Shown here: one piece after another, positions 12,605 to 64,000 of the stretch
Layout: each line of letters opens with the position of its first letter
How positions within the stretch are numbered: position 1 is the first letter of the stretch
Source of the DNA: Clostridia bacterium
GTDB taxonomy: Bacteria; Bacillota; Clostridia; Acetivibrionales; JBAZRJ01
Length of the DNA: 64,000 nucleotides
NCBI GenBank assembly: GCA_041662985.1
Contig: JBAZRJ010000003.1
Location: 3,793 to 67,792 of the forward strand
Direction of reading: 5' to 3'
Notes under the pieces: model-generated
What the model saw: only the letters and a program-made list of their open reading frames with translations
Told to the model about the DNA's origin: nothing
The model's database searches: none
Translations under genes and position numbers: made by a program

Positions 12605-13546
12605 TTACATTCTTTCAATTACTCTAAGTTTTGCGCTCCTTGCCCTTGGATTTTCCTCAAGTTCCTCTTTTGTCGGTATTATCGGTTTTTTTGAGATATG
12701 TTTTGCTGTCGGTTTCCTTTTGCATACACATATCGGAAAATCACGGGGGCATGTACAAGGATCTGTCGCTTTGTTAAATTCATTTTTCACTATCCTGTCT
12801 TCCAGCGAATGAAATGTTATTATGCAAAATCTTCCGCAAGGTTTAAGTATCGATATTGCATCATCTATTGCGTCCTTTAGTATCCCCAGTTCATTGTTTA
12901 CTTCTATCCTCAGTGCCTGGAATGTTCTTTTTGCAGGGTGCGGACCATCTCTTCTTGCGCTGCTCGGTATTGCCGCCTTAATTATTTCAACCAGTTCCCA
13001 TGTTGTATCAATATGTTTCTTTTCTCTGGCTGCAATTATAAATTCTGCAATCCTTGGTGCCCATCTTTCCTCGCCGTAATTTCTTATAATTTCTTTTATG
13101 TTTTCTTTCGAATATTCGTTGACTATTCTTTCCGCAGTAATTTCAATGTCCTTATCCATTCTCATGTCGAGCGGTGCATCGTTCATGTACGAAAATCCTC
13201 TTTCGGGTTCATCCAGCTGATATGAGGAAACCCCTAAATCAAGCAATATTCCGTCGACTTTCTTTATTCCGTTTTCAACACAAACCTTTTTTATATTTTT
13301 AAAATTACTTTTTACCAAAATTATTTTTGCTTTACCCGGAGTGTTATTCAATATTTCCTTTGCATGTTCGAGTGCGTCTGAGTCCTGATCTACTCCCAAT
13401 AACGTTCCGTCTTTGTCAAGCTGTTTGTATATTTCAGCGGCATGTCCTGCACCGCCTAAAGTCCCGTCTACATATATGCCGTCAGGCTTTATTTTTAAGT
13501 TTTCAAGACATTCATTCAATAATACCGGCCTATGGCTAAATTCCAT
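12605..13546 (-). CDS. rsmH: 16S rRNA (cytosine1402-N4)-methyltransferase
   Basis: N-terminal HRPVLLNE, the SAM site [10 protein letters not shown], and DLGVSS. It directly follows mraZ. Confidence 0.95.
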
Positions 13547-13555
13547 TTGGCACCT

Positions 13556-13999
13556 CTATATAAACAAATTATTTAATTCCATTTCTTCTGCTAAATCCTC
13601 AATGTTTCCGCTTTCCGAATCATATTTTTCCCAGCTGTCTTTATCCCAGATTTCTACTCTGTTTCCAACACCCAGAACATAAACATCCTTATCTATACTT
13701 GCATAATTTCTCAAAACTTGTTTAAGTAAAATCCTGCCCTGCTTGTCGGTAGTAACTTCGTCAACACCTGCAAATATTTTTCTCGAAATAGCTACAGCCT
13801 TTTTATTTGATATCGGGAGCTCTTTAAGTTTTTCGGTAAAGATATTCCAACCTTCCATTGAATATACAAACAAACAATTGTTTAAACCCTTGGTAACAAT
13901 GAACTCGTCTCCGAGTCCATCTTTTAATTTCCTGGGAACAAATACTCTCCCCTTCAAGTCAATTGTGTGTTTATATTCTCCGTAAAAGCCTGCGCTCAT
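13556..13999 (-). CDS. mraZ: Transcriptional regulator MraZ
   Basis: Two SpoVT/AbrB-like halves (DLKGRVFVPRK and DKQGRILLKQ). I chose ATG 13999 (MSAGFYGEY) because it matches the usual MraZ N-terminus and has a GGAGA SD. The GTG at 14017 lies inside the operator repeats. Confidence 0.92.
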   Translation of the reverse strand: MSAGFYGEYKHTIDLKGRVFVPRKLKDGLGDEFIVTKGLNNCLFVYSMEGWNIFTEKLKELPISNKKAVAISRKIFAGVDEVTTDKQGRILLKQVLRNYASIDKDVYVLGVGNRVEIWDKDSWEKYDSESGNIEDLAEEMELNNLFI

Positions 14000-50202: not shown

Positions 50203-53200
50203 TTAATTTACCGTTACCTTGCATTTATCGGTTTTCTTTCCATCAACTGTGTAAACATATATATATGTCGTGCCTTTTTTAATTCCTTTAACAACGCCCG
50301 TTGAGCTTACAGTCGCAAATGCTTTATTCCCTGATTTCCAGGTAACTTTCTTGTTACTTGCGTTTGTTGGGTTCACAGTCGCGCTCAACTTCATGGTTTT
50401 TCCTTTTTTTAGAGATGCCGATATTTTGCTCAATTTTACTCTTGTTACAGGTTGGGTAACCGTTACAGCACATGTCGCAACTCTTCCTCCGCTAACGGAT
50501 GAAGCTATAATCAAAGTTGTTCCTCTTGTCTTTGCGGTTACTTTTCCCGTAGACGTAACAGAAGCAATTTTAGAGTTGGCCGATGTCCACATAACAGCTT
50601 TATTGGAAGCATTGGTCGGATAGACAGTCGCAGTCAGTTTTACCGTCTGGCTCACTTTCAAAAAACTGCTTGCCTTATTGATAGTAATTTTAGAAACACT
50701 AATCGGTGTTGGCTTAGGAGTTGGTATTACAGTTGGCGTAGCCGTTGGTGTTGCTGTCGGCGTTGCTGTTGGTGTTGCTGTCGGCGTAGACGTTGGAGTT
50801 GCCGTCGGCGAAGCCGTTGGCGTAACTGTCGGTGTAGTTGTCGGCGTAGCCGTTGGAGTTGCCGTCGGCGTTGCTGTTGGTGTTGCTGTCGGCGTAGACG
50901 TTGGAGTTGCCGTCGGCGAAGCCGTTGGCGTAACTGTCGGTGTAGTTGTCGGCGTAGCCGTTGGAGTTGCCGTCGGTGTAGCCGTCGGCGTAGCCGTTGG
51001 AGTTGCCGTCGGCGTAGCCGTTGGCGTAACAGTCGGAGTTGCCGTTGGAGTTGCTGTCGGCGTAACTGTCGGCGTAGCCGTTGGTATTGCCGTCGGCGTA
51101 ACCGTTGGTGTTTGATAACCCTCAGGGAAAATTGTGTGATTCTCAATTTTAAATAAGTTATTGGCAGTATCGGATATAAAGAACACTTTCCCGACATCGT
51201 CGGTATAAGGTGCCTCCGCTCTGAAAAGATAATTACTCGCTATTTGCGTCCTCATGCCTCCCTGCGGCGTAACCCAGACACTAAATGTTTTGGAAATCAT
51301 ATTAGCCTGTATTTCAATATGATATTTTGTATTTGCAGAATATGTCACCTTGTTATCATATTCACATAACCAACCGCTTCTGGCGTCAAATATGCCTGCA
51401 TCATTCAATCTGACCTGGATTGCAAGGTCGTCAAAACCGGTTATCAAAGTGGAAGAATCAATATATGCTATTTGAGCATCAATATTATCCGCCAATGGAG
51501 TAACATCAAAACTCATTACCTGATTTCCGGTATTTGAACTTCCCAAGTCATACCCGTTATTTTGCCAATCAGGATTCTTAAAAGAATATGCCGTCTCAAT
51601 AAACGCACCGCCGGGAGTTGCTGTTGGAATTGGTGTCTCAGTCGGTACCGGCGTTGCCGTAGGTGTCGGTTCAAGAGTCGGTGTTGCAGTAGGAAGGTTC
51701 TGGCTGCTGCTTCCGTCCATTTTGATGAAATCATCAGGATTTACAGATACACCTGACCTAATCAATCCGGATGCTGCGGCAATCGGATCTTGAGAACTGT
51801 TCCACTTATTGCCTAATGCTGTATGAATGTAAACCATATCTCCTGTCGGGTAATTATAGATAGTTCCTGTTAAAACTCCGGGATCAATATTAATCGGAGG
51901 GTCGAACATATCATATCTGCCGCCGGGTTTTACTGCTTCCGCATGTTCCGGACTCTCGATAAATTGCATACGTTCCATCTTGCATACCGCAATAGGAGGA
52001 TTTGTGTTTGAACCGGCAATTATAACGCTGTTTGTAAAATTAATGTTTGAAGGTCTTATCGCGGGATCGATCTGGTTATCCAGTTCCCCATGATTATCTC
52101 CGAATATTTCAAATGCGTATTTTGTCGGTAATACTGAATAAAAACTATCGACATACTGGTCATGGTTGAGCCTCATTTCACTTGCGATTGATACAGGCGA
52201 ACCCCTGTCTCCGCAGCGGACCATCTCACAGATACCTCGACCGGGATTAACCTCTTCTCCTCTTTCATTGCCAAAAAGCCAACCCGCTTTTTCTCCGTTA
52301 ATTGAAACACATTCTTCGAAATAACCGCCCTGGAAAAAGAAATTTGACCCTTCGGTTTCAGCAGGGATAGTATGTCTCGGTATGACAGGGTTGCCAAATT
52401 CGTCTCTGTAAAGAGCTCTCTGTCCTGCATCAATTGAAACGCAACGATATAATGAAAGGTTTTTAATATTCCCTCCGGATGCTTCCGGCTCGGTATAAAA
52501 ACCTGCTTTCCAGCAATCTATGGCGTAGCAGTCTCTTGCCACCACATCTTCAATATTCTGATTTTCGCAGAAATCAAAACCTACCGACCAGTCTGCGCTT
52601 CCGCCCTCAATTTTTCCCGATCCTCCGTGCAATGCACGGCAATTTTTAAAATAAATATTTTTTGATGTGCCCGGATTTTGTCCGGTTTGTATTGCAAAAC
52701 TATGGTGGGATGAACATTGCACATTAATGTTTTCAAGTGTGACGGTATTGCAGCTTCCGTATACCCACAGGGTTCCGGTTGCGCCGGCGTTGCCCATGAA
52801 GCACCAAGTTCCGTTTGGGTATGTTCCGTGATAATTATGTATAAGCACATTTTTTACTATAGAATTGGTAATATTGTCTAAAGTCATAACAACATATCCG
52901 CTGAATTCAACATCTTGAATTCTAATATTTGTTGCGCCGCTGACTGTATCGACATATCCTATATTTCCTGACGGTGCCTGTACTGAAGAATCAAGAAATG
53001 TCCTTGTCGCAAAAACAGCTTGTGTCGAGGAGTTGGGATAGAGCATCTGAGACTTGTCCTCAGGAAGAGCAACATGTGTTTCACCGAGAATGCTTGTATT
53101 GCTTCCAATTATAAATTGTCTTGTAGGGCCTTCGATCCAGTATTCTCCCGGTGCAAAATAGCAGGTAACATTGCCCCGAACCAACAAATTTTTTAATGAG

Positions 53201-53457
53201 GTCGGCAGGACTCCATTTGTGCAGATAATTGTTCCGGATGCATTTTTATATAAAGCCGGACTTGTATCAGTGGCAACATGTATCACACTTGCGGCTGATA
53301 CCTTTTCTCCGGTATCAATAATAAACGACATTGTGGAAATCATTGCAACTGTCAAAATTATTGAAAGAAATCTTTTTGCATTAATTATGTTTCTCAAATT
53401 TTTCCCCCTGAATTGGTTATTTATTTTAGAAAATATATCCTTATAGAATTCTACCAT
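50203..53457 (-). CDS. Secreted multidomain protein
   Basis: Domain order: signal peptide, right-handed parallel beta-helix, P/T linker, ~150-aa unassigned module, long P/T linker, two Big_2 Ig-like domains. Signal peptide [21 protein letters not shown]. PbH1-like repeats ([36 protein letters not shown]). The module is at 51133-51591, and the (TPTATP)n linker follows. The two C-terminal Big_2-like repeats are [29 protein letters not shown] and [29 protein letters not shown]. Confidence 0.85.
50757..50976 (-). repeat. Perfect 108-bp in-frame tandem duplication inside the P/T linker
   Basis: 50757-50868 is identical to 50865-50976 (period 108 nt = 36 codons, [36 protein letters not shown]). 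It is embedded in a ~410-nt ACN-CCN repeat tract (50700-51110). Confidence 0.9.
51133..51591 (-). other. Unassigned ~150-aa module, copy 3 (in the beta-helix protein)
   Basis: [33 protein letters not shown]...[26 protein letters not shown]...FKIENHTI aligns along its length with the two copies in the Rhs protein. Confidence 0.8.
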
Positions 53458-53579: not shown

Positions 53580-54788
53580 ATGAATAGAATCCAAAGAAAA
53601 GAATATCTTGATTTTTTAATAAGAGGCAGGGACAAACAAATAGTTAAAATTGTGTCTGGCGTTCGCAGATGCGGTAAATCAACCTTATTCGAGATATATC
53701 GCGACTACTTGAAAGAGAACGGTGTAAATGAAAATCAATTCATATCAATAAACTTCGAGGATATTGATTTTGAATATCTGAATACATATCGCAAGCTTTA
53801 TGATTATATAAAACCTCTTTTGACTGAAAATAAAATGAATTACATTTTCCTTGATGAAATTCAACATGTAGAAAATTTCGAAAAAGCAGTTGACAGCCTG
53901 TTTATCAAAAAAAACTGTGACGTATATGTAACAGGCTCAAATGCATTTTTCATGTCCGGCGAATTTGCAACCTTGCTTTCAGGGCGTTATACAGAATTGA
54001 AGATGCTCCCTTTATCATTCAAGGAATTTTGCTCGGAATATAAAAAGGGCAAAAGTCATTTGCCAAATATACAAAAGTATACGGCTTATCTTGAAAACAG
54101 TTCTTTCCCCTATACCATGCAATTAACGGAAAAAAAAGATGTAAAGCAGTATCTGCAAAGTATATATGATTCAGTGCTGCTGAAAGATATTGTTGCAAGA
54201 CTTAATATATCCGATGTTCTAATGCTTGAAAGCATCGTTAAGTTTGTCTTCGATAATATTGGTAACCTTCTGTCAACGACAAGTATTGCTAAAACAATGA
54301 CTTCAAAAGGACGGAAGATTGACCAAAAAACAGTTGAAAAATATATTAAGGGCTTGATGAACAGTCTTATCGTCTATCAGGCAAAGAGGTACAATATAAA
54401 GGGTAAGCAATACCTTGCTACTCTTGAAAAATACTATGTTGTCGATATAGGTCTCAGATACATGCTTCTGGGGGACAAAGGAATCGATGTAGGGCATATT
54501 CTTGAAAATGTTATTTACTTAGAACTGCTGCGCAGAGGTTTTGATGTTAGTGTAGGCAAAGTCGAAGATTTTGAGGTCGATTTTGTTGCGTCTGACGAAA
54601 ACGGGCTGAAATACTTCCAAGTCGCCGCATCAACAAGAGACAACTCAACCCTTGAGAGAGAATTAAAATCTCTTCAAAAAATATCCGATCATTACCCAAA
54701 ATACATCTTGACTCTTGATGAAGACCCTGAAGCTGACTATGAAGGAATCAAGAGAATAAATGCTCTTGAATGGCTGCTTTCAGAATAA
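53580..54788 (+). CDS. AAA-family ATPase with C-terminal DUF4143-type domain
   Basis: Walker A GVRRCGKST and Walker B IFLDEIQ. The C-terminal third (FEVDFVA....YFQV) matches the ATPase+DUF4143 architecture as I remember it. Confidence 0.8.
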   Translation: MNRIQRKEYLDFLIRGRDKQIVKIVSGVRRCGKSTLFEIYRDYLKENGVNENQFISINFEDIDFEYLNTYRKLYDYIKPLLTENKMNYIFLDEIQHVENFEKAVDSLFIKKNCDVYVTGSNAFFMSGEFATLLSGRYTELKMLPLSFKEFCSEYKKGKSHLPNIQKYTAYLENSSFPYTMQLTEKKDVKQYLQSIYDSVLLKDIVARLNISDVLMLESIVKFVFDNIGNLLSTTSIAKTMTSKGRKIDQKTVEKYIKGLMNSLIVYQAKRYNIKGKQYLATLEKYYVVDIGLRYMLLGDKGIDVGHILENVIYLELLRRGFDVSVGKVEDFEVDFVASDENGLKYFQVAASTRDNSTLERELKSLQKISDHYPKYILTLDEDPEADYEGIKRINALEWLLSE

Positions 54789-54973: not shown

Positions 54974-54989
54974 TCAGCGGAACCGCTGA
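54974..54989 (-). terminator. Candidate terminator of the Rhs-ankyrin operon
   Basis: The minus strand reads TCAGCGG-TT-CCGCTGA followed by TTTAAATTTAT, ~90 nt after the ankyrin gene stop. Confidence 0.5.
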
Positions 54990-55077: not shown

Positions 55078-56673
55078 CTATTTGGCACCTTTCTTAGAAA
55101 GATATTCCGCTATGTGTTTACTTCCTCTTTGAATGGCAAAAGTCCTTATTGACTTGATGCTATCATCCGAATCAATATACTCCAAATCCGCACCATTTTC
55201 AACAAGTAACTTAACAATATCAAATGCTCCGCTTTGTATTGCTTCAACTAATGCAGAATTGGTTTTAGAGCCATCATCCCATACTCCTATTGCATTAACA
55301 TCAACTCCTTTTTTTATCAAATACTCTGCAATATTTGTTCTGCAAAATTGAGATGCTAAATTAAGTGGCAACCCCTTCAGGCCACTACCATCAACATTAG
55401 CACCACTTTCAACCAATAATTTTACAAAATTCATTTTCCCTAATGTACAAGCCTCTCCTAATAATGTAGTTCCATTTTGATCTTCAATGTCTAAATCTAT
55501 CCCTAAATCTAAAAAATATTTTAAGGAATTTAATTGATCCCATTTTATAGCTTCAATCATAGCCGGTATTATGTTCTTGGCATTACGCGGATATCCATTT
55601 TCAATTAATAATTTTATTATTCTTACATCCCCATTTGCAGATGCAAAATTCATAGCGCTCACCTGGTAACCATTATGTTCATAATATGTTCGAGCACCTT
55701 TCTTCAACAAATACTTTGCAGTTTCATATTGATTATTCCGAACGGACAATATTAATGCAGTTTCATTATCATTGTTTTCATTTTCTGTACCTTTAAATTT
55801 TGCGAGTAAGTATTTTAAAGTTTCTAACTGTCCATATTTTGCCGCAATCGCTAAAGTCGAGTTTTTATTATCATCAAATAATCTGATTTCAAGCCCTCTG
55901 TTTTCAAGCAGTTTAACTGTCTTTAAGTTGCAGAATGCAGTAGAATAAAGCACAATCTTCTTTTCGTAATCTTTTTTTACTTTACCCTTTAATACATACT
56001 CTGCTACTTTTGAAGACTCACCTAATATCGCAGCTTCAAAAACCGGATCTAAATTTGACTTAAACCCGGCATTTATCAACCCCTGTAGAATTTGCTTAAT
56101 CATGCCGTATTTGCAGTAACCAATACTATTTCTCAAAATCGACTCTAATGTTTTTGGGGTAATCTTCGCACCGTTTTTAATAAGCATATTAAATGTCAAA
56201 TTTGAATACTGTTCAAGTGGACCCCATTGTAACATAAAATCCAAAGCCGTATATCCATCCTTACCGGTTTGATTGATTTTTGCCCCATGTTTAAGGAGAA
56301 GCTCACATAATTCATTATTCCCCATACCCGCTGCATACATCAATTGTGAAACACCTGCACTATCAGTGTAATTGGGATCAGCACCTTTTTCTATAAGATA
56401 TCGGGCTATGGAATCCCTTCCATCCTCGCATGCTATCCTAAAAGGGTTTTTTTGTCTCACACCAAATTGTGTGATTTTTGTTAACAAAAATCCACTTAAC
56501 TCGTTTAGATTTGCACCATCATCAATTGCTTCCTTTGCACCTTCTAAACTTCCATTCTCTATACTGGTAAATAATTTCATATCATTTCCTTTCCCTGTTA
56601 TTATTGAGCATGAAGATAAAAACAATCCTACTAAAATTATCATGCCCAATATTTGAATTGGCTTAATTTTCAT
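55078..56673 (-). CDS. Ankyrin-repeat lipoprotein (about 12-14 ANK repeats); candidate immunity protein
   Basis: Signal peptide with lipobox LSSC (MKIKPIQILGMIILVGLFLSSCS). It has many ANK repeats (e.g. GADPNYTDSAGVSQLMYAAGMGNNELCELLLKHGAKIN). A GGAGGG SD is present, and the gap after the Rhs stop is only 43 nt. Confidence 0.85.
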   Translation of the reverse strand: MKIKPIQILGMIILVGLFLSSCSIITGKGNDMKLFTSIENGSLEGAKEAIDDGANLNELSGFLLTKITQFGVRQKNPFRIACEDGRDSIARYLIEKGADPNYTDSAGVSQLMYAAGMGNNELCELLLKHGAKINQTGKDGYTALDFMLQWGPLEQYSNLTFNMLIKNGAKITPKTLESILRNSIGYCKYGMIKQILQGLINAGFKSNLDPVFEAAILGESSKVAEYVLKGKVKKDYEKKIVLYSTAFCNLKTVKLLENRGLEIRLFDDNKNSTLAIAAKYGQLETLKYLLAKFKGTENENNDNETALILSVRNNQYETAKYLLKKGARTYYEHNGYQVSAMNFASANGDVRIIKLLIENGYPRNAKNIIPAMIEAIKWDQLNSLKYFLDLGIDLDIEDQNGTTLLGEACTLGKMNFVKLLVESGANVDGSGLKGLPLNLASQFCRTNIAEYLIKKGVDVNAIGVWDDGSKTNSALVEAIQSGAFDIVKLLVENGADLEYIDSDDSIKSIRTFAIQRGSKHIAEYLSKKGAK

Positions 56674-56716
56674 TTGTTAGCCCTCCATACTGAAGTAAGC
56701 ATCTTATATTTCATTC

Positions 56717-59700
56717 TTATCCCCACCACTCAATAATTAATTCCTTTTTATCATTTGATGCTATATATATTCTCGCCTTGGAATAACAACTCTTAAATCC
56801 TCTATAACACGCAGAACACATTCCTTCATTTGGGAATATAATTTTTGCAATCATATATAAATTTTTTGCAGAGTAAACTCTACCCGGTGTGAAACCAGTC
56901 AACCACCAATGATACTGAAATACCCTATGAACAAGTTTTTTATCATTTAATGTTCTAAGATAGATTGCCATTTTTAACATATCACTATTTTTTACACTTG
57001 CATACCATCCTGGTACATAGAACCATTCCCTATAATAAACTCCTATTTCACAGCCGGATGCAACTAAATACTGACCCTTCCAAAGTTGGACTCTCCAATC
57101 CATTTTTGTACCATCTTTTCTTTTATAAGTAAAATAGCTTTTTAAACTGTCTATATGAAATCCGAGAGCAGGTGCAGCCCAATCAAAAGCATCACAATAT
57201 CCAAAACCCCTTTGCCACGCATTCAATGATGTATAATAAAAATCATAAGTGCGGTCTTTGTAATGATTTAGTCCTGTATAAATTTTAGTAACCCCATTGG
57301 TAAAAAGTGAAAGATCGTATAAAGTCCCGCTTGGGTCAGAATAAATAATCGGATTATTCCCACAATACGCAAATATATTCGCTCCAAGTACTTCACCCTG
57401 TGTATCCTGCAAAATACCTATTTCATCCGCATTAATAAACCTTCCGGTATTTGAATCATAATATCTGCTCTGCAGATAATAAAGCCCGGTTTCGGTATCA
57501 AAGTAGTAACTTCTATAGCGGAATGGATTTATTACCCCTAATGTGCTCGCCGCGCTTCCTGTAGTTGATAGCAATTTGCCCCATGCATCATATGTATAGT
57601 CTACCACATCGTTGCCGTTGCTATCAAGAATACTCAATATATCTCCCTGAATATTTTTAACATAGTAATAATCTGTGGTTGTACTGCCGGTCGTTTTCTC
57701 AAACCCGATTAAGTTATCATTTCCATCGTATCTAAAATACAGCTTATTTGTTCCGTCATCCTGATAAGTTATTTTATTTCCAACCAATGTATATTTTGTA
57801 GTTGTACCGTTTACGGTTTTGCTTTGACGGATACCGTCCTGGTTGTATTTATAAGCTATCGTTTTACTGTTACCCGTTACTCCTGCAAGTTCTCTTCCCA
57901 TTTCCCATGTGAAGTTATACCCATTGTAATAGCTTAGCGGATTACCCACATCGTCATATGTAATGCTGTTTCCATCGTAACTTGTTAATTTATCCTTCCA
58001 TGTGTTGTCGTATCCATAGTTTTTCGTTGTGAGAACTGAACCAAGAGTTCCTGTGGTATAAGCATATGTTTTTTTGCTCGATATGTTTCCGCCTACATCA
58101 TAAGCATAAACAGTTGTTCCATTATTAGGGTCATTTACCCTTGTAAGCTCCCCGGCATCATTGTAAACATATGTTTTGCCGCTGTCATTTACAATATTTC
58201 CAACTTTGTCATATTGATATGAAAATATTTTGCTGTATCCGTTATTGCCAAACATGCTGACTGCGCATGGCAAGGTTCCGGTCTTATATTGTGAGAAATT
58301 CGGATAACTATAGGTAGTGTTTAAAAGATTGGCAGTAATTTCACCGGACGAGTTCTTTTTGTACAAACTTCCCCCTGTAATCCTGCCTAAACCGTCATAA
58401 GCAGCCTCGCTGTTTACGACAGAGCCATTGGATAGACTAAAGTATGCTTTGCTTGCAAGACCATCCGAATCAGTAAGAAAATTTGTTGTGTATGTGATGC
58501 TTCCTATCGATTCACTGAAAGTATTCGCATCATTCTCCCCGGCACTGTTCCAAAAACTATGAGTGTACGGGCTTGCTCCGATTGTGTTTTTTTGGTTTGT
58601 TATACTGTTGCCATCACTGTCAGAGCTATAGCTTGTCTGAATATTATTCACATGGTCTATTATTGTATTGATATTTCCCGCATTTCCATATGAGAACTTA
58701 TATCTCAATAAATCATTATATGAGACACTGCTTGGATTGAAATTCGTGTCGTAATCGAAGCTGACAGTCCCGCAGCTGCTATTTACTCCGTAATCAATTT
58801 CGTTTAAGCTATATCCGTTTGCGGCATTATTGTATGTAAAATTCATCAGCGAATTTGATTCAACACTAACCGATGAAATCGCACCTTTTGTATTATATGT
58901 AAAGTCATAAGTAAAGTCATTATGGGTTACACTTGCAAGCGCATCGTTTTTGTAATATTCATAACCGGTCAGAAGACTATTGGTTCCGTCTGATTTTGAA
59001 ACAGAGGATAAGTTTCCAAACGCATTATAGTTGTAACCTGTTGTTACGTTATTTGCATCGGTTTCTGAATCCAGCAAACCAAGGTTTGTATCGTAGCTGT
59101 ATGTCGTCACATTACCGACATCGTCTGTCAAATCGGCAAGATAATTTCCGTCGGCGGTATATGTATTGTCGGTTTCAATCATTTGTCTGCCGTTTGTGGT
59201 AACCGAACGCAAAGGATTGTTATTTAAATCAAATGTACACAAGCTTTCAACACCTTCACTGCTCACTGAATCTGTTGTATTGCCAAAAGTATCTGTTACA
59301 GTCTTTGATTTATCCTCCACACTATCCATAATGCTGTCATCATTTATACCCGGTGCAGCTGTTGGAGTAGCCGAAGGTGATGAAGTCGGTTCCGGTGTTG
59401 GTTCAGGTATATCCTGAGAATCAATTAATATCCCATCTTCGTCATAATTATAGTTTGTTCCAAACGGTTCTTTATATAACTGAATAGCGTCAAAGAAAGA
59501 AACATTTGACTGCTTGGCATAATCGACAGTAATCTTAATACTGTCATAATCACCTTCGGCGGTAAAACCTGACATCGAATACTGCCAGTCTGTGACCGAA
59601 GGGTTAAATACAGCATGATAAGTTTCAGTTACACTTGAGTTTTTAATCAAATCTGCGCGTATCTCAAATGTCCTGTCTCCGGATAGCGGTACTGCCTTGC

Positions 59701-62700
59701 TTTTTGCCCAACCCCCGAAAGAATATTGATCGCCCTTTTTGCCGCCTACTGCAATATTCTGATATATTGCCGCATTTTTTAACGGATTGCCTTGAATTTG
59801 CATGTAGTTTTTCCCAACAGGACTCAAAGGCGCAGTATTTAAGACATTTGATGTTGAAGACTCGGTATCGTTATTGTTATTAAAACTGTAATAAGACCAT
59901 GAAGCAGGGGTGGCCGGAGTACCTGTTGTCTTTTCAAACCCGCTGTTTTCAACAAAGTTGAAACTACCGGGTTCAGTATTTGAAGATGTTTGGGCATATT
60001 CAAGCTGTACTCCGTCGAACCAGGCAGAACCAATAGAATCATATGCAAGTTCAGTCCAAGATTTAACTGTTGTTGCATTGTTTATATGGAAAGACATATA
60101 AATACGTTTCCAGTCACTTTGACCATCAATAATTTCGCTGTCATGTGTAATAGTAATATCTCCGGATGCAGTTGCTGTAACATTAAGCCTTGCACCGTCA
60201 ATTCCCGAGCTCCTCTTTACATAAGCCGAGAGGACATAATCTCCTCCTGCTTCCAAATCAATACTTTGATAATATGATGATTTGGCAGCATAGCCTGAAT
60301 AATGTATAAATTTGAAAGAATTGCTTCCAAAGTATTTATAATCTGTAGCAATTGAATTATTGCCGCCTGAACTCGTCCAACCTGTTGCTCCGTTTTCCGC
60401 AGAACCGTTTGTCAATAAATTCACCGAGGTCTTTTTTAAATCTGAAATACATACAATTCTGTCGGGGTTTTTTGAGCTTCCTGCATTCGGAGCATATGAG
60501 CCAAACACAGCGTTTCCCAAATGATCCTGAACTGATATAACATTACCCGAATTGTCAAACTGCAAAGTAACTGACTTATTTGTATCGATGTCTGTATATT
60601 TTGTTGAGTTTTGAGTATATGTAACGTTCACCTGCTGCATTTTATGTTCACTCAAATTACCCGAATTATATGCGCCTATATCATACTGGGTTATACTCGA
60701 AATTTTTGCACCGGTTGTATAACCCAAATCCAATTGACATCCATCCACATTTACAATCCTGGAAATCGTCTTGTCAGAATTCCACTCGTAAATCACATTT
60801 CTGTCATCGTCACCTGAAACAGTAGGATAACTCACGTCCGCAGGGTAAACAACACCCGTTAAATTATTGCTTGAGTCATATGAATAGCAAACAGTTTTGA
60901 GTACTGTGGTTCCTTTACCAATGTAATCAATACGTGTCAGCCTATGTGTGGTTGCATTATATGTAAACTGATACTTTCTGCCAACACCGTCAGTTATATG
61001 GTCTATCGCGCATGATGCTGCTTCCGATGTATCATATACGATATCTATGGATTTTTGAGTAATATTACTGCTATTTAAAGTTGCTATCCTGCCCGCACCG
61101 TTAAAAGTGATAATCTCATTTGTATCTGTTTTTGTCACCGTCATCTTGCTTAAATCATTCGGATAGTTTGAGTCAACTGTCAGGGAATAGGTATCGTCTG
61201 TGTCTGTAAATGTTATGTTTGATTCTTCAGTACCCGTGGATGTAGGCGTAGGTGTTGCAGCAACTCCTGCAATAACTCTATGGTTTTCTACTTTAAAATC
61301 ATTTACCGTATTTGAAACACAAAATAGCTTTCCGGCATCATCTGTAGCCGCACAGCCTGTTCTAAAAGCATAATTGGCGGCTATCTGTGTTTTTGTGCCT
61401 CCTGTTGGGGTAACCCAAACACTGTAAGTATTCGCGCTCATGTCTGCAGCAATTTCTACATGATATTTAGTATACGCGGAATAACTTACTGCATTTGTAT
61501 GTGTGCATGATGAACCGTTCCGTACATCAAAAACACCTGTATCACTTAAGGCTATTTGCATCGCCAGTTTGTCAAATCCCGTCACATCGGCAGAAGAATC
61601 TGCATAAGATATCTGTGCATCCAAATCATTTTCTAACGGCGTTACATCAAAACTTATATCTTGATTTCCGGTATTGCCGTCGCCAAGTGAGTATCCGTTG
61701 CTTAACCAGTTACCCGAAGAGGAGTATATCCGAGCCGGTATACTGGCAGGAGTATATGTAGGTGCAGCAATCACTCCTTCTTCTATTGTTTGATTTTCAA
61801 CTTTAAAAGCATTGCTGTAGGCTTCGGAAATAAAATATGCTTTTCCGACATCATTTGTTAAAGGCGCACTCGACCTGAATTCATAGTTGCTTGCTATTTG
61901 GGTTCTTGCCCCTCCGTCAGGAGTAATCCATACGCTGTACGTATGAGCGCTCATATTTGCTTCAATTTCAACATGGTACTGAGTATACGCCGCATAATTT
62001 ACAGTACCTGAATGCGTACATCCCGCACCTTTCCTTACTTCAAAAATACCGCTTGGATTAAGCCAGATTTGCATTGCAAGCTGATTAAAGTTCGTAACCG
62101 TAGTTGCATATCCGGCATATGCCACCTGACCATCAATATTATTTCTTAGCGGTGTAATATCAAAATTAATTACCTGATTTCCCGTATTGCCGCTTCCTAA
62201 ATCGTACGGACTGTTTACCCAAAACCCGTCACGTTGCGAATAAATCTCATCTGTTTGTTTTGGCTCTGTGGTTTCATCCGATACAGTTTCGGTTCCGGTT
62301 TCGTCAAAAGCAGTTTTTGTTCCGTCTGCTGCCGTAAACTGATAATAGTCTTCTCCGTCTTTTGGTGTAATACGTCTTATACTCTGCATATTGTTTGATA
62401 TTTTAACAAGCCTTCCGATGCTGCCGTTTGAAGGATTATCAAATGAAAGAATTTGATTGTCCGGAGTATATACCGAAACTTTTGTGTAGTCATCAAGGTC
62501 GCTTGGGTACACAGTCAATATGTAGCCGCTTCCGCTATTATCAATATATGATTCCGTCGGGTCCGCAACTTTTGAATTGTTTTCAAAATATATTATATGT
62601 CCGTCCTCTGCCGTGTATGCATAATATGGTATTAAGTTTGTTAAACTGGCAGGATAGAATTTTATTGTCTGGCTGTAATTGGTTCTCCAGCCGTTTCCAT

Positions 62701-64000
62701 ACCTTGCAACATTCCCCGAGGAGTTTGTAATGTATTTGTCTTTGTCGGATGTGTTATATATCATTGAGATATCTACAGGTAAAATATTTCCGCCGACCCC
62801 TATATCTTCTCTGCTTACGCTTAGTTTTCCGGTATAATCATTAAGATAAACCGTTCCGGCTTTTCCCACGCCTATGCTGCGCTGACTTGTTATACTCTTA
62901 TTTCCAATATCATTTTTATAGGTTATTTGAACATACGGATACCAATTCTCATTTGTATAACCATTAAAAAAGTAATCCGATGAATAGAAATAACCGCAGT
63001 TTCCTGCAGTCGGCACAGGGCTGTCACTTTTCAACATTACTCCGTAGTTCGTTGCTGTTCCGCTATACCAGTCTTTTACTAGTCCTGTTATATCAAAGTG
63101 AACATTTTTAATAAAATCCTCATTAGTCTGCGTTGCCCAATCAAGAATTTTCGGGTCATTCGAAGGTGCTTCGGTTGAGTTTACATATCTTTCATCCCAA
63201 TCGCTTATAACCTTGTATAAACTTGTGGTCCATGTAGCTCCATTGCTGTTTGGGGCTTGTGTTAAATTCAATTGTGCATCAGTTATTATACTTCCATTAT
63301 CGAGTACCGGAAGAGTGTTTACCTTTAAATATGTTCTATAAACCTGATTGGAAGAACCTTTACCTGTATACAGGTAAATTGGATTTTGATTGGTTGCACC
63401 ATAGCATGTGTTGTCACCTTCAATGACATAAGCATCACTGTATGTTGTATTGCCTCCGTTTGTATTTACATGTCCGTTTACTGCAGTTATTGTAGGGTCA
63501 ATCGTAACAGGATATGCGCGATCGGTTGCGTTTAACCAAACATCTGATGGTGTATATGTCAGTTTATACCCATTGCCGACACTTTTAATTATTGCGGTTA
63601 TATCGCTTGAATTAACATTTTTGCTGTCAAACATAAAAGGTGCAGGCATAACAAAAACAGGCGTTTTGGATTTATCGGAAGAGGAATAGAAATTAACCGA
63701 ATTGTCTTTTTGTAGTTCTGCTGTTAACCCAGTTGTCTTTATATCATAAACATAATCTACTGCCTTGCTCGGTATTTTATTTAAAGTAATTGTTTCTTTT
63801 AATGAATTTGATTGCAGACTGTAATTTACATTTGTGTCTTGTTCAACTGCATTGTACTTAGCTGTGTCGGATTTGTCACTCATGTTGGTCATTTCGATTG
63901 CTGACTTTTTGTCTGAATCGGAAACCTTTTGTACAACAATTTCATCCTTGACTGTTCCCGCTTTTTCTGCCGCTGAGATTTTATCAACCTTATTTATCTT
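56717..64000 (-). CDS. Giant Rhs/YD-repeat polymorphic toxin, 5' end beyond the window
   Basis: The reading frame stays open for 36 codons upstream of the ATG at 63892, to base 64000. YD repeats run throughout 57.3-61.2 kb (e.g. YSYDSSNNLTGVVY, YAYDVGGNISSK, YTYDAWGKL). The canonical Rhs C-terminal boundary is YYLQSRYYDSNTGRFINADEIG...NNPIIYSDPSGT, followed by a 201-aa tail. Confidence 0.9.
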   Translation of the reverse strand, partial: KINKVDKISAAEKAGTVKDEIVVQKVSDSDKKSAIEMTNMSDKSDTAKYNAVEQDTNVNYSLQSNSLKETITLNKIPSKAVDYVYDIKTTGLTAELQKDNSVNFYSSSDKSKTPVFVMPAPFMFDSKNVNSSDITAIIKSVGNGYKLTYTPSDVWLNATDRAYPVTIDPTITAVNGHVNTNGGNTTYSDAYVIEGDNTCYGATNQNPIYLYTGKGSSNQVYRTYLKVNTLPVLDNGSIITDAQLNLTQAPNSNGATWTTSLYKVISDWDERYVNSTEAPSNDPKILDWATQTNEDFIKNVHFDITGLVKDWYSGTATNYGVMLKSDSPVPTAGNCGYFYSSDYFFNGYTNENWYPYVQITYKNDIGNKSITSQRSIGVGKAGTVYLNDYTGKLSVSREDIGVGGNILPVDISMIYNTSDKDKYITNSSGNVARYGNGWRTNYSQTIKFYPASLTNLIPYYAYTAEDGHIIYFENNSKVADPTESYIDNSGSGYILTVYPSDLDDYTKVSVYTPDNQILSFDNPSNGSIGRLVKISNNMQSIRRITPKDGEDYYQFTAADGTKTAFDETGTETVSDETTEPKQTDEIYSQRDGFWVNSPYDLGSGNTGNQVINFDITPLRNNIDGQVAYAGYATTVTNFNQLAMQIWLNPSGIFEVRKGAGCTHSGTVNYAAYTQYHVEIEANMSAHTYSVWITPDGGARTQIASNYEFRSSAPLTNDVGKAYFISEAYSNAFKVENQTIEEGVIAAPTYTPASIPARIYSSSGNWLSNGYSLGDGNTGNQDISFDVTPLENDLDAQISYADSSADVTGFDKLAMQIALSDTGVFDVRNGSSCTHTNAVSYSAYTKYHVEIAADMSANTYSVWVTPTGGTKTQIAANYAFRTGCAATDDAGKLFCVSNTVNDFKVENHRVIAGVAATPTPTSTGTEESNITFTDTDDTYSLTVDSNYPNDLSKMTVTKTDTNEIITFNGAGRIATLNSSNITQKSIDIVYDTSEAASCAIDHITDGVGRKYQFTYNATTHRLTRIDYIGKGTTVLKTVCYSYDSSNNLTGVVYPADVSYPTVSGDDDRNVIYEWNSDKTISRIVNVDGCQLDLGYTTGAKISSITQYDIGAYNSGNLSEHKMQQVNVTYTQNSTKYTDIDTNKSVTLQFDNSGNVISVQDHLGNAVFGSYAPNAGSSKNPDRIVCISDLKKTSVNLLTNGSAENGATGWTSSGGNNSIATDYKYFGSNSFKFIHYSGYAAKSSYYQSIDLEAGGDYVLSAYVKRSSGIDGARLNVTATASGDITITHDSEIIDGQSDWKRIYMSFHINNATTVKSWTELAYDSIGSAWFDGVQLEYAQTSSNTEPGSFNFVENSGFEKTTGTPATPASWSYYSFNNNNDTESSTSNVLNTAPLSPVGKNYMQIQGNPLKNAAIYQNIAVGGKKGDQYSFGGWAKSKAVPLSGDRTFEIRADLIKNSSVTETYHAVFNPSVTDWQYSMSGFTAEGDYDSIKITVDYAKQSNVSFFDAIQLYKEPFGTNYNYDEDGILIDSQDIPEPTPEPTSSPSATPTAAPGINDDSIMDSVEDKSKTVTDTFGNTTDSVSSEGVESLCTFDLNNNPLRSVTTNGRQMIETDNTYTADGNYLADLTDDVGNVTTYSYDTNLGLLDSETDANNVTTGYNYNAFGNLSSVSKSDGTNSLLTGYEYYKNDALASVTHNDFTYDFTYNTKGAISSVSVESNSLMNFTYNNAANGYSLNEIDYGVNSSCGTVSFDYDTNFNPSSVSYNDLLRYKFSYGNAGNINTIIDHVNNIQTSYSSDSDGNSITNQKNTIGASPYTHSFWNSAGENDANTFSESIGSITYTTNFLTDSDGLASKAYFSLSNGSVVNSEAAYDGLGRITGGSLYKKNSSGEITANLLNTTYSYPNFSQYKTGTLPCAVSMFGNNGYSKIFSYQYDKVGNIVNDSGKTYVYNDAGELTRVNDPNNGTTVYAYDVGGNISSKKTYAYTTGTLGSVLTTKNYGYDNTWKDKLTSYDGNSITYDDVGNPLSYYNGYNFTWEMGRELAGVTGNSKTIAYKYNQDGIRQSKTVNGTTTKYTLVGNKITYQDDGTNKLYFRYDGNDNLIGFEKTTGSTTTDYYYVKNIQGDILSILDSNGNDVVDYTYDAWGKLLSTTGSAASTLGVINPFRYRSYYFDTETGLYYLQSRYYDSNTGRFINADEIGILQDTQGEVLGANIFAYCGNNPIIYSDPSGTLYDLSLFTNGVTKIYTGLNHYKDRTYDFYYTSLNAWQRGFGYCDAFDWAAPALGFHIDSLKSYFTYKRKDGTKMDWRVQLWKGQYLVASGCEIGVYYREWFYVPGWYASVKNSDMLKMAIYLRTLNDKKLVHRVFQYHWWLTGFTPGRVYSAKNLYMIAKIIFPNEGMCSACYRGFKSCYSKARIYIASNDKKELIIEWWG
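56720..57322 (-). other. Rhs C-terminal payload, DUF4474-like, activity unknown
   Basis: The tail after DPSGT contains AWQRGFGYCDAFD, DWRVQLWKGQY, GCEIGVYY and HWWLTGF. I associate these with Pfam DUF4474 (memory only, no search run). Confidence 0.6.
59465..60421 (-). other. Two tandem CBM4/9-like (galactose-binding-like) modules within the Rhs protein
   Basis: The first is NLLTNGSAENGATGWTSSGG...WFDGVQLEYA (59992-60421). The second is NFVENSGFEKTTG...FFDAIQLYKEP (59465-59962). The N[GS]xFE...W start and F[FD]D..QL end are typical of this CBM fold. Confidence 0.55.
61277..62239 (-). other. Unassigned ~150-aa module, copies 1 and 2 (tandem, in the Rhs protein)
   Basis: Copy 1 is at 61784-62239 and copy 2 at 61277-61726. 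By eye about half of the aligned positions are identical (Y.LG.GNTGNQ..F D.TPL, LAMQI, CTH, YHVEI, YSVW.TP.GG..TQIA.NY.FR, FKVEN). Confidence 0.8.

Follow-up and report, generated by a model that had tools for sequence, protein, structure and literature searches.

Here, we analyzed a 64,000-nt stretch of DNA from a Clostridia bacterium (contig JBAZRJ010000003.1; the whole stretch is called the window below), in which a gene for an ankyrin-repeat (ANK) protein follows the 3′ end of a large Rhs gene. We propose, with a probability of roughly 0.7, that the two genes form a polymorphic toxin/immunity pair and that the ANK protein is the immunity protein. Judged from sequence, its most likely role is that of antidote to an as yet undescribed, putative toxin family, represented in the window by the C-terminal tail of the Rhs protein, which belongs to DUF4474, a Pfam domain of unknown function. 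All the sequence features that characterize a Rhs polymorphic toxin/immunity pair were found: a YD-repeat shell with its core and a DPxG motif; a tail domain that is also carried by VgrG-linked, Sec-signal and PG_binding_1 proteins; and a co-directional downstream gene that travels with the toxin domain (six of 11 ANK family members, seven cassettes). An original prediction, made from the DNA letters alone, had placed an exported ankyrin lipoprotein in the immunity-gene position of a Rhs locus. That the pair lies on the minus strand, that the Rhs open reading frame (ORF) runs open to the window edge and that its tail is a named Pfam family are additions of the present analysis.

The Rhs gene ends in a DUF4474 domain

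The Rhs ORF stays open to base 64000, reaching no stop before the edge of the window. It matched RHS_repeat, the TIGR01643 YD repeat, TIGR03696 and a DNRLRE domain, together with a sub-threshold Sialidase-like carbohydrate-binding module (CBM) match. Its visible N-terminal part contains the DNRLRE domain, a duplicated module of ~190 amino acids (aa) (GNTGNQ.I.FD.TPL...) and the CBM-like match. TIGR03696, which marks the Rhs-associated core, scored 73 bits against a cut-off of 32.5 over residues 637-725 of the minus-strand translation of window:56717-59500, ending 202 residues before the stop. The core closes with ...NPIIYSDPSGT, a DPxG-type motif, which is followed by the 201-aa tail.

This tail matched DUF4474 (PF14751; E 4.2e-37 and 5.7e-35) with 128 bits against a gathering cut-off of 23. 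The match spans profile positions 11-179 of 240, without the C-terminal helical extension of the family, and the AlphaFold2 model of the tail (predicted local distance difference test score, pLDDT, 90) is mostly beta. DUF4474 is rare, being present in 1,889 clusters of 1.84 billion protein clusters, and our literature search for DUF4474 or PF14751 found no paper mentioning either. An alignment (A4) of toxin-type members with the standalone DUF4474 proteins described below revealed invariant residues Q37, D47, W81, K82, G83, Y85, G90, E92, G94, Y96, W139 and W140 (tail numbering). We also considered a papain-like catalytic dyad of Cys43, at the start of a helix, and His138. This idea was rejected because several toxin-type members are without either residue, carrying GYN or GYS instead of GYC, and L, G, T or A before WW instead of HWW.

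The downstream gene encodes a predicted ankyrin lipoprotein

The Rhs stop codon (TAA, 56719-56717) and the ATG of the ANK gene (56673-56671) are separated by 43 nt on the same strand, and a GGAGGG Shine-Dalgarno sequence (ccctcc on the plus strand) lies 7 nt 5′ of this ATG. Both the spacing and the separate Shine-Dalgarno sequence had been noted in the original prediction and were read again directly from the sequence; the sizes it gave for the ANK protein (531 aa) and the Rhs tail (201 aa) were likewise correct.

The ANK protein matched Pfam Ank_2 (E 1.4e-57) and Ank (E 6e-39). Its AlphaFold2 model, built on 43 relatives, had a pLDDT of 92.1 and a predicted template modelling score of 0.86, and consists of a signal-peptide helix, a low-confidence stretch (residues 21-26) and 15 helix-turn-helix pairs stacked in one continuous solenoid. 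Thus, the predicted ankyrin array was recovered, its proposed count of ~12-14 repeats being slightly low. The low pLDDT at residues 21-26 is consistent with a flexible tether in the modelled protein. The best Foldseek matches of the model were long ankyrin arrays (AnkB/AnkR) and DARPin fusions, with E values from 1e-17 to 1e-19.

The N-terminus has the three parts of a lipoprotein signal, namely a positively charged n-region (MKIK), a 15-residue hydrophobic core and a lipobox of the form [LVI][ASTVI][GAS]C (L-S-S-C22), the last of which the original prediction had named. In an alignment of 43 family sequences, position -3 of the lipobox is L, F, I or V in 40, position -2 is S or T in 39, position -1 is S, A or G in all, and the +1 Cys is present in 43/43. 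Cys22 is one of just eight invariant columns in this alignment. Export and lipid anchoring of the ANK protein are therefore strongly predicted from sequence.

A database entry from a Clostridia metagenome-assembled genome is 100% identical to the ANK protein, and the family comprises clear full-length relatives of 520-626 aa with 31-47% identity. When genome contigs were scanned with VKLLVENGAD, a generic ankyrin consensus, the hits were all unspecific ANK proteins of many phyla, at 22-34% identity. In its C-terminal half (residues 348-530, window 55078-55630), the protein also matched the PADLOC candidate PDC-M72A (E 2e-45); we rejected this assignment, which probably reflects generic repeat similarity.

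DUF4474 and the ankyrin family recur as a cassette

We examined the genomic context of 11 members of the ANK family, including the one in the window. DUF4474 was encoded directly upstream of the ANK gene, on the same strand, in six of them (seven cassettes), with gaps from -4 to ~150 nt, and all six pairings were re-checked with custom profile hidden Markov models (HMMs). This is the co-occurrence expected had the ANK gene been correctly placed in the immunity-gene position, and it extends over four delivery architectures: Rhs; VgrG-linked; a Sec signal with an undetected N-terminal domain; and peptidoglycan-binding repeats. In the window, DUF4474 is the Rhs tail. At the P0016 locus (L001), a PAAR-like DUF4280 gene and two VgrG-like genes precede a gene for a 386-aa DUF4474 protein, which is followed by the ANK gene. 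At P0027 (L175), a VgrG-like gene precedes a DUF4474 gene (433 aa) whose end extends 4 nt past the start of the ANK gene. The upstream DUF4474 protein has 886 aa and a Sec signal at P0023 (L005), and 1,295 aa and three PG_binding_1 domains at P0025 (L006). Finally, P0038 (L176/L177) carries two successive DUF4474-ANK cassettes adjoining a Rhs fragment and an IS91 element.

Given the rarity of the domain (~1,900 of 1.84 billion clusters), chance adjacency of DUF4474 and the ANK family is excluded. Polymorphic toxin/immunity cassettes are defined by just this pattern, in which one C-terminal domain is attached to exchanged delivery modules and a gene of a single family invariably comes next. The neighbours seen in related loci (Imm11, DUF2247 and orphan Rhs C-terminal fragments) are typical of toxin islands.

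Two further members, P0013 and P0009, belong to Rhs cassette arrays that lack an intact DUF4474. At P0013, a weak remnant of the domain (E 0.005) is all that is left, with a Rhs fragment nearby. P0009 (L184) is the closest relative of the ANK protein (47% identity) and has an orphan Rhs C-terminal fragment starting LNRYTYVSNNPVNFIDPTG 286 nt downstream; this fragment (L184:2359-3252) begins in the conserved end of the core and continues into an unrelated tail with no Pfam match.

The L005 locus also contains two fragments of another ANK-family gene (12903-13277 and 13379-13828), ~1 kb 3′ of the intact one; they match profile positions 472-594 and 1-155, and look like displaced cassette remains. 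An IS91-type transposase (Zn_Tnp_IS91/Y2_Tnp) and a phage-type integrase form a pair close to the 3′ side of the ANK gene at L008:9999-11994 and L176:7162-9166. The former is an ANK locus without a toxin and the latter the array of DUF4474-ANK cassettes, which hints that an IS91-type element mobilises ANK genes.

Standalone DUF4474 proteins have a different partner

Scans with the DUF4474 profile covered 80 metagenome loci, four viral-contig loci and two isolate genomes. All 80 metagenome loci, the four viral-contig loci and the two genomes carried standalone DUF4474 proteins of 212-553 aa, most of ~300 aa, and the metagenome and viral scans, while of use as a negative control, added no further toxin-type loci. 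An N-terminal transmembrane segment was present in 97 of 121 standalone relatives, followed by basic residues in those sequences that were read, which by the positive-inside rule would place the DUF4474 domain on the cytoplasmic face.

A calcineurin-like metallophosphoesterase of ~300 aa was the product of the next gene downstream, in the same orientation, at 46 of the 57 standalone loci with enough sequence (found among L094-L173, e.g. L154:6686-7720, and at L092:7174-8091), and natural fusions of the two proteins exist (P0271 and P0374). No metallophosphoesterase partner was found at the toxin-type loci, and in a tree the toxin-type domains fall on long branches outside the standalone clade. 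DUF4474 thus occurs in two settings, one predicted to face the cytoplasm together with a phosphoesterase and the other predicted to be delivered and paired with an ANK lipoprotein.

Gene layout and neighbourhood

All coordinates are those of the window, and both genes of the pair are on its minus strand (Table 1). A terminator scan of the spacer between them revealed no terminator-like site, and an ORF check identified no other supported ORF between the ANK gene and the convergent gene that follows it. The tail (GC 0.333; GC at third codon positions, GC3, 0.24) and the ANK gene (GC 0.339; GC3 0.27) are both more AT-rich than the Rhs core (GC 0.384; GC3 0.35) and the whole window (GC 0.384). 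This low shared GC is as expected for a cassette exchanged or acquired as a unit.

Table 1 Features of the Rhs-ANK locus in the window
Feature	Coordinates	Strand	Details
Ankyrin-repeat lipoprotein gene, putative cognate immunity protein	55078..56673	-	ATG start, 531 aa
Ankyrin solenoid, residues 29-527, 15 helix pairs	55093..56589	-	AlphaFold2 secondary structure
Predicted lipoprotein signal peptide, residues 1-21, with lipobox Cys22	56608..56673	-	N-terminus MKIKPIQILGMIILVGLFLSSC
Intergenic spacer, 43 nt	56674..56716	-	GGAGGG Shine-Dalgarno at 56681-56686, direct sequence reading
Putative Rhs/YD-repeat toxin ORF	56717..64000	-	>2,427 codons; 5′ end past window edge
Rhs C-terminal tail, DUF4474, putative toxin	56717..57322	-	201 aa and stop; PF14751 match 56756-57259
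Rhs-associated core, end of YD shell	57326..57592	-	TIGR03696 E 2e-20; ends at NPIIYSDPSGT cleavage-type motif

The convergent neighbour of the ANK gene (53580-54788, plus strand) encodes an AAA_14/DUF4143 ATPase with a full-length match to PDC-S01, a phage-defence candidate in PADLOC (E 3e-157). Between the two genes lies a perfect 16-nt palindrome, TCAGCGGAACCGCTGA (54974-54989), after which comes a T-rich run on the minus strand. It may be a terminator shared by both genes; the terminator scan made no call there. Further along, 50203-53457 (minus strand) encodes a 1,084-aa protein with C-terminal Big_2 domains, in a region whose local GC (0.42-0.445) is above that of its surroundings.

Comparison with known systems

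The WapA/WapI system of Bacillus subtilis, whose description is attributed to Koskiniemi et al. 2013, is reportedly a Gram-positive, wall-associated YD-repeat toxin with tRNase tails, protected by WapI, a small cytoplasmic protein. The pair in the window resembles it in having a large YD/Rhs protein of a Firmicute whose variable C-terminal part, a putative toxin in the window, follows the Rhs core, and in the place of the immunity gene immediately downstream. In contrast to WapI, our immunity candidate is a 531-aa protein predicted to be an exported lipoprotein. TelC/TipC of Streptococcus intermedius (Whitney et al. 2017) is reported to centre on a lipid II phosphatase of the LXG class, delivered by a type VII secretion system. 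In that Gram-positive system, the immunity protein is tethered to the membrane and neutralises the antibacterial toxin on the outside, as we propose for the ANK protein, although TipC is not an ankyrin protein. TelC/TipC thus shows that Firmicutes do have envelope-acting toxins countered by external immunity.

The closest functional analogue is Tle6/Tli of Enterobacter cloacae, a phospholipase of the type VI secretion system whose immunity gene, directly downstream, also encodes an ankyrin-repeat lipoprotein. Tli protects only from the periplasm and uses its six repeats to cup the lipase, and the Tle/ANK pairing is found again with VgrG-linked, Rhs and CdiA forms of delivery (10.1101/2023.03.28.534661; PMC11470151). 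However, Tle6 is an alpha/beta-hydrolase lipase, whereas DUF4474 is mostly beta and gave no lipase match with Pfam, AlphaFold2 or Foldseek. Tli has six repeats against ~15 in our protein, shares no specific sequence relationship with it beyond the repeat type, and works in a Gram-negative periplasm, whereas the present organism belongs to the presumably monoderm Clostridia. By analogy, the pair may function as Tle6/Tli does, yet it falls outside that family, which requires an alpha/beta-hydrolase phospholipase with a Ser nucleophile elbow.

Ankyrin repeats also serve as polymorphic-toxin immunity proteins in Imm-ank, which is also used in Firmicutes and is listed with Tox-AHH nucleases and as part of cytoplasmic multi-immunity proteins (Zhang et al. 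2012, PMC3482391). Here the partner is DUF4474 rather than AHH, and the Imm-ank row in the table of that paper gives neither a lipoprotein signal nor a DUF4474 partner. In Bdellovibrio bacteriovorus, the ankyrin protein Bd3460 guards the producer against its own peptidoglycan DD-endopeptidases. Unlike the ANK protein, Bd3460 is small, protects against the predator's own secreted endopeptidases and does not belong to a polymorphic toxin cassette (PMC4686830).

Discussion

Our model suggests that the DUF4474 tail is a toxic cargo enclosed in the Rhs shell, from which it would be freed by autoproteolysis before its delivery to neighbouring cells. Export and lipidation at Cys22 would hold the ANK protein on the outer face of the cytoplasmic membrane of what we presume to be a monoderm cell. 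There, the concave face of its solenoid would bind and block the incoming DUF4474 toxin, comparable to the cupping of Tle6 by Tli. Since an extracytoplasmic antidote is predicted, the toxin would be neutralised outside the membrane, where it would most likely also act, on the wall or on membrane-linked envelope material. The cytoplasm of the producer may need no protection, since the Rhs shell, or export in an unfolded form through Sec, would keep the toxin inactive inside.

The original prediction had concluded that the toxin acts in the envelope. Such a site is plausible, since the immunity protein is predicted to be external and since PG_binding_1 fusions and a Sec-signal form exist, but these features do not compel it: a surface-tethered ANK binder could also intercept a toxin bound for the cytoplasm.

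Several observations weigh against a toxin/immunity pair, or against parts of our model. The toxicity, binding and protection ascribed to the pair are predictions. The Rhs N-terminus and any export signal lie beyond the window edge, so the export route was not seen. DUF4474 shows no recognisable toxin fold, as Foldseek of the model against PDB and BFVD gave no structural match, and an HMM search against PDB sequences gave none either. Most DUF4474 proteins are not delivered toxins: there was no ANK-family neighbour at the 80 metagenome and four viral loci or in the two genomes, and standalone forms, which appear to face the cytoplasm, fit awkwardly with an envelope target. Thus, DUF4474 domains do occur beside unrelated genes, in part the outcome that the original prediction had named as contrary to it, although the proteins paired with a metallophosphoesterase are not the delivered ones. 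A mirror-tree comparison of toxin and ANK pairwise distances was not significant (Mantel r 0.29; 880 of 5,040 permutations reached r; n=7).

On the ANK side, no DUF4474 was found within the 291 nt of upstream sequence at hand for P0009. Moreover, three members (P0039, P0044 and P0047; L008:8001-9602, L010:8001-9590 and L178:8001-9617) have neither DUF4474 nor Rhs nearby and lie in unrelated contexts, while encoding ~530-aa proteins that keep the lipobox. ANK genes without Rhs genes, in part the other outcome named as contrary to the prediction, therefore exist, and form one diverged clade (3/3 examined), the paired members being spread through the main clade of the ANK tree. Immunity genes are often found orphaned, without a toxin, and the diverged clade (these three and their relatives) may consist of such genes or may have another function.

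Other explanations of the locus have to be weighed against the same data. DUF4474 might be a surface enzyme or binding module, for example one acting on the wall, with the ANK protein as its membrane-side regulator or docking partner in the producer's own envelope biology. The housekeeping look of most DUF4474 proteins, with their downstream metallophosphoesterase and the P0271 and P0374 fusions, fits this, and the PG_binding_1 fusions could serve the producer's own wall. We nevertheless consider it unlikely: DUF4474 follows the Rhs core, a position not known to hold anything but toxin cargo, and is found as cargo beside VgrG and PAAR-like genes as well as in orphan cassette arrays that include insertion sequence elements and immunity families. 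The swapping of modules and the long divergent branches outside the standalone clade point the same way. It is highly improbable that the ANK protein is unrelated to the Rhs toxin, as a host-directed effector or accidental neighbour with the true immunity gene elsewhere; recurrent adjacency to DUF4474 excludes chance and comes near to refuting this. Bacterial ANK proteins are often effectors, and ours resembles Legionella Dot/Icm effectors (AnkY, AnkX, AnkH and others) in NCBIfam, but the scores of 47-87 bits are far under cut-offs of 500-1,400 and reflect generic repeats, so an effector identity was rejected. A lipobox, moreover, is not a type IV effector signal, and the ANK gene is the only supported ORF between the Rhs stop and the convergent gene.

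The chief role of the ANK lipoprotein could also be to activate, chaperone or help export the DUF4474 toxin, whether or not it confers immunity. A dual function has a precedent in Tli, which is needed for active Tle in Enterobacter (10.1101/2023.03.28.534661; PMC11470151). By analogy with Tli, a cytosolic isoform could arise by translation from an in-frame Met32 (codon 56578-56580), which lies just past the signal peptide and has a purine-rich tract, AAGGAAA, ahead of it. Met32 is kept in only 4 of 43 family members, however, so that the internal start is not a family feature, whereas the invariant lipobox indicates selection on the exported form. Protection also accounts for toxin-less orphan ANK genes better than activation does, and we regard a primarily helping role as quite unlikely.

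Within the toxin/immunity reading, a more specific origin for the domain is possible, albeit doubtful. DUF4474 could be a new envelope-acting toxin fold, recruited from the housekeeping, membrane-anchored DUF4474/metallophosphoesterase module, with the ANK protein as its purpose-built external inhibitor. The housekeeping module would then work at the cytoplasmic membrane face, sometimes as a fusion, and the shared substrate would be phosphate-containing, membrane-linked and present in both leaflets, for example an undecaprenyl-pyrophosphate-linked wall precursor. The 15-repeat ANK lipoprotein might, like Tli, possibly double as an activator. If true, the toxin/immunity pair would point straight to the function of an orphan Clostridia family of ~1,900 clusters.

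A Rhs tail with a downstream immunity gene is a well-known type of system, and immunity by an ankyrin lipoprotein is a well-known idea. What is new is a putative toxin/immunity family within this kind of system, distinct from Tle6/Tli, from Imm-ank/Tox-AHH and from the Ank effector family. It goes beyond the routine in that no structural match of the toxin domain was found in PDB or BFVD, in that the immunity protein is unusually large and predicted to be anchored externally although the lineage is Gram-positive, and in the link of DUF4474 to a housekeeping phosphoesterase. Our analysis thus suggests a likely role, that of a delivered toxin, for DUF4474, and defines a matching immunity family of unusually long, predictedly lipid-anchored ankyrin solenoids. 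To our knowledge, extracytoplasmic immunity proteins are uncommon in Gram-positive toxin systems, and their presence points to toxins that can be stopped outside the membrane and probably also act there. The two partners of DUF4474, a metallophosphoesterase in one setting and an ANK lipoprotein in the other, would provide two independent handles on the biochemistry of the domain.

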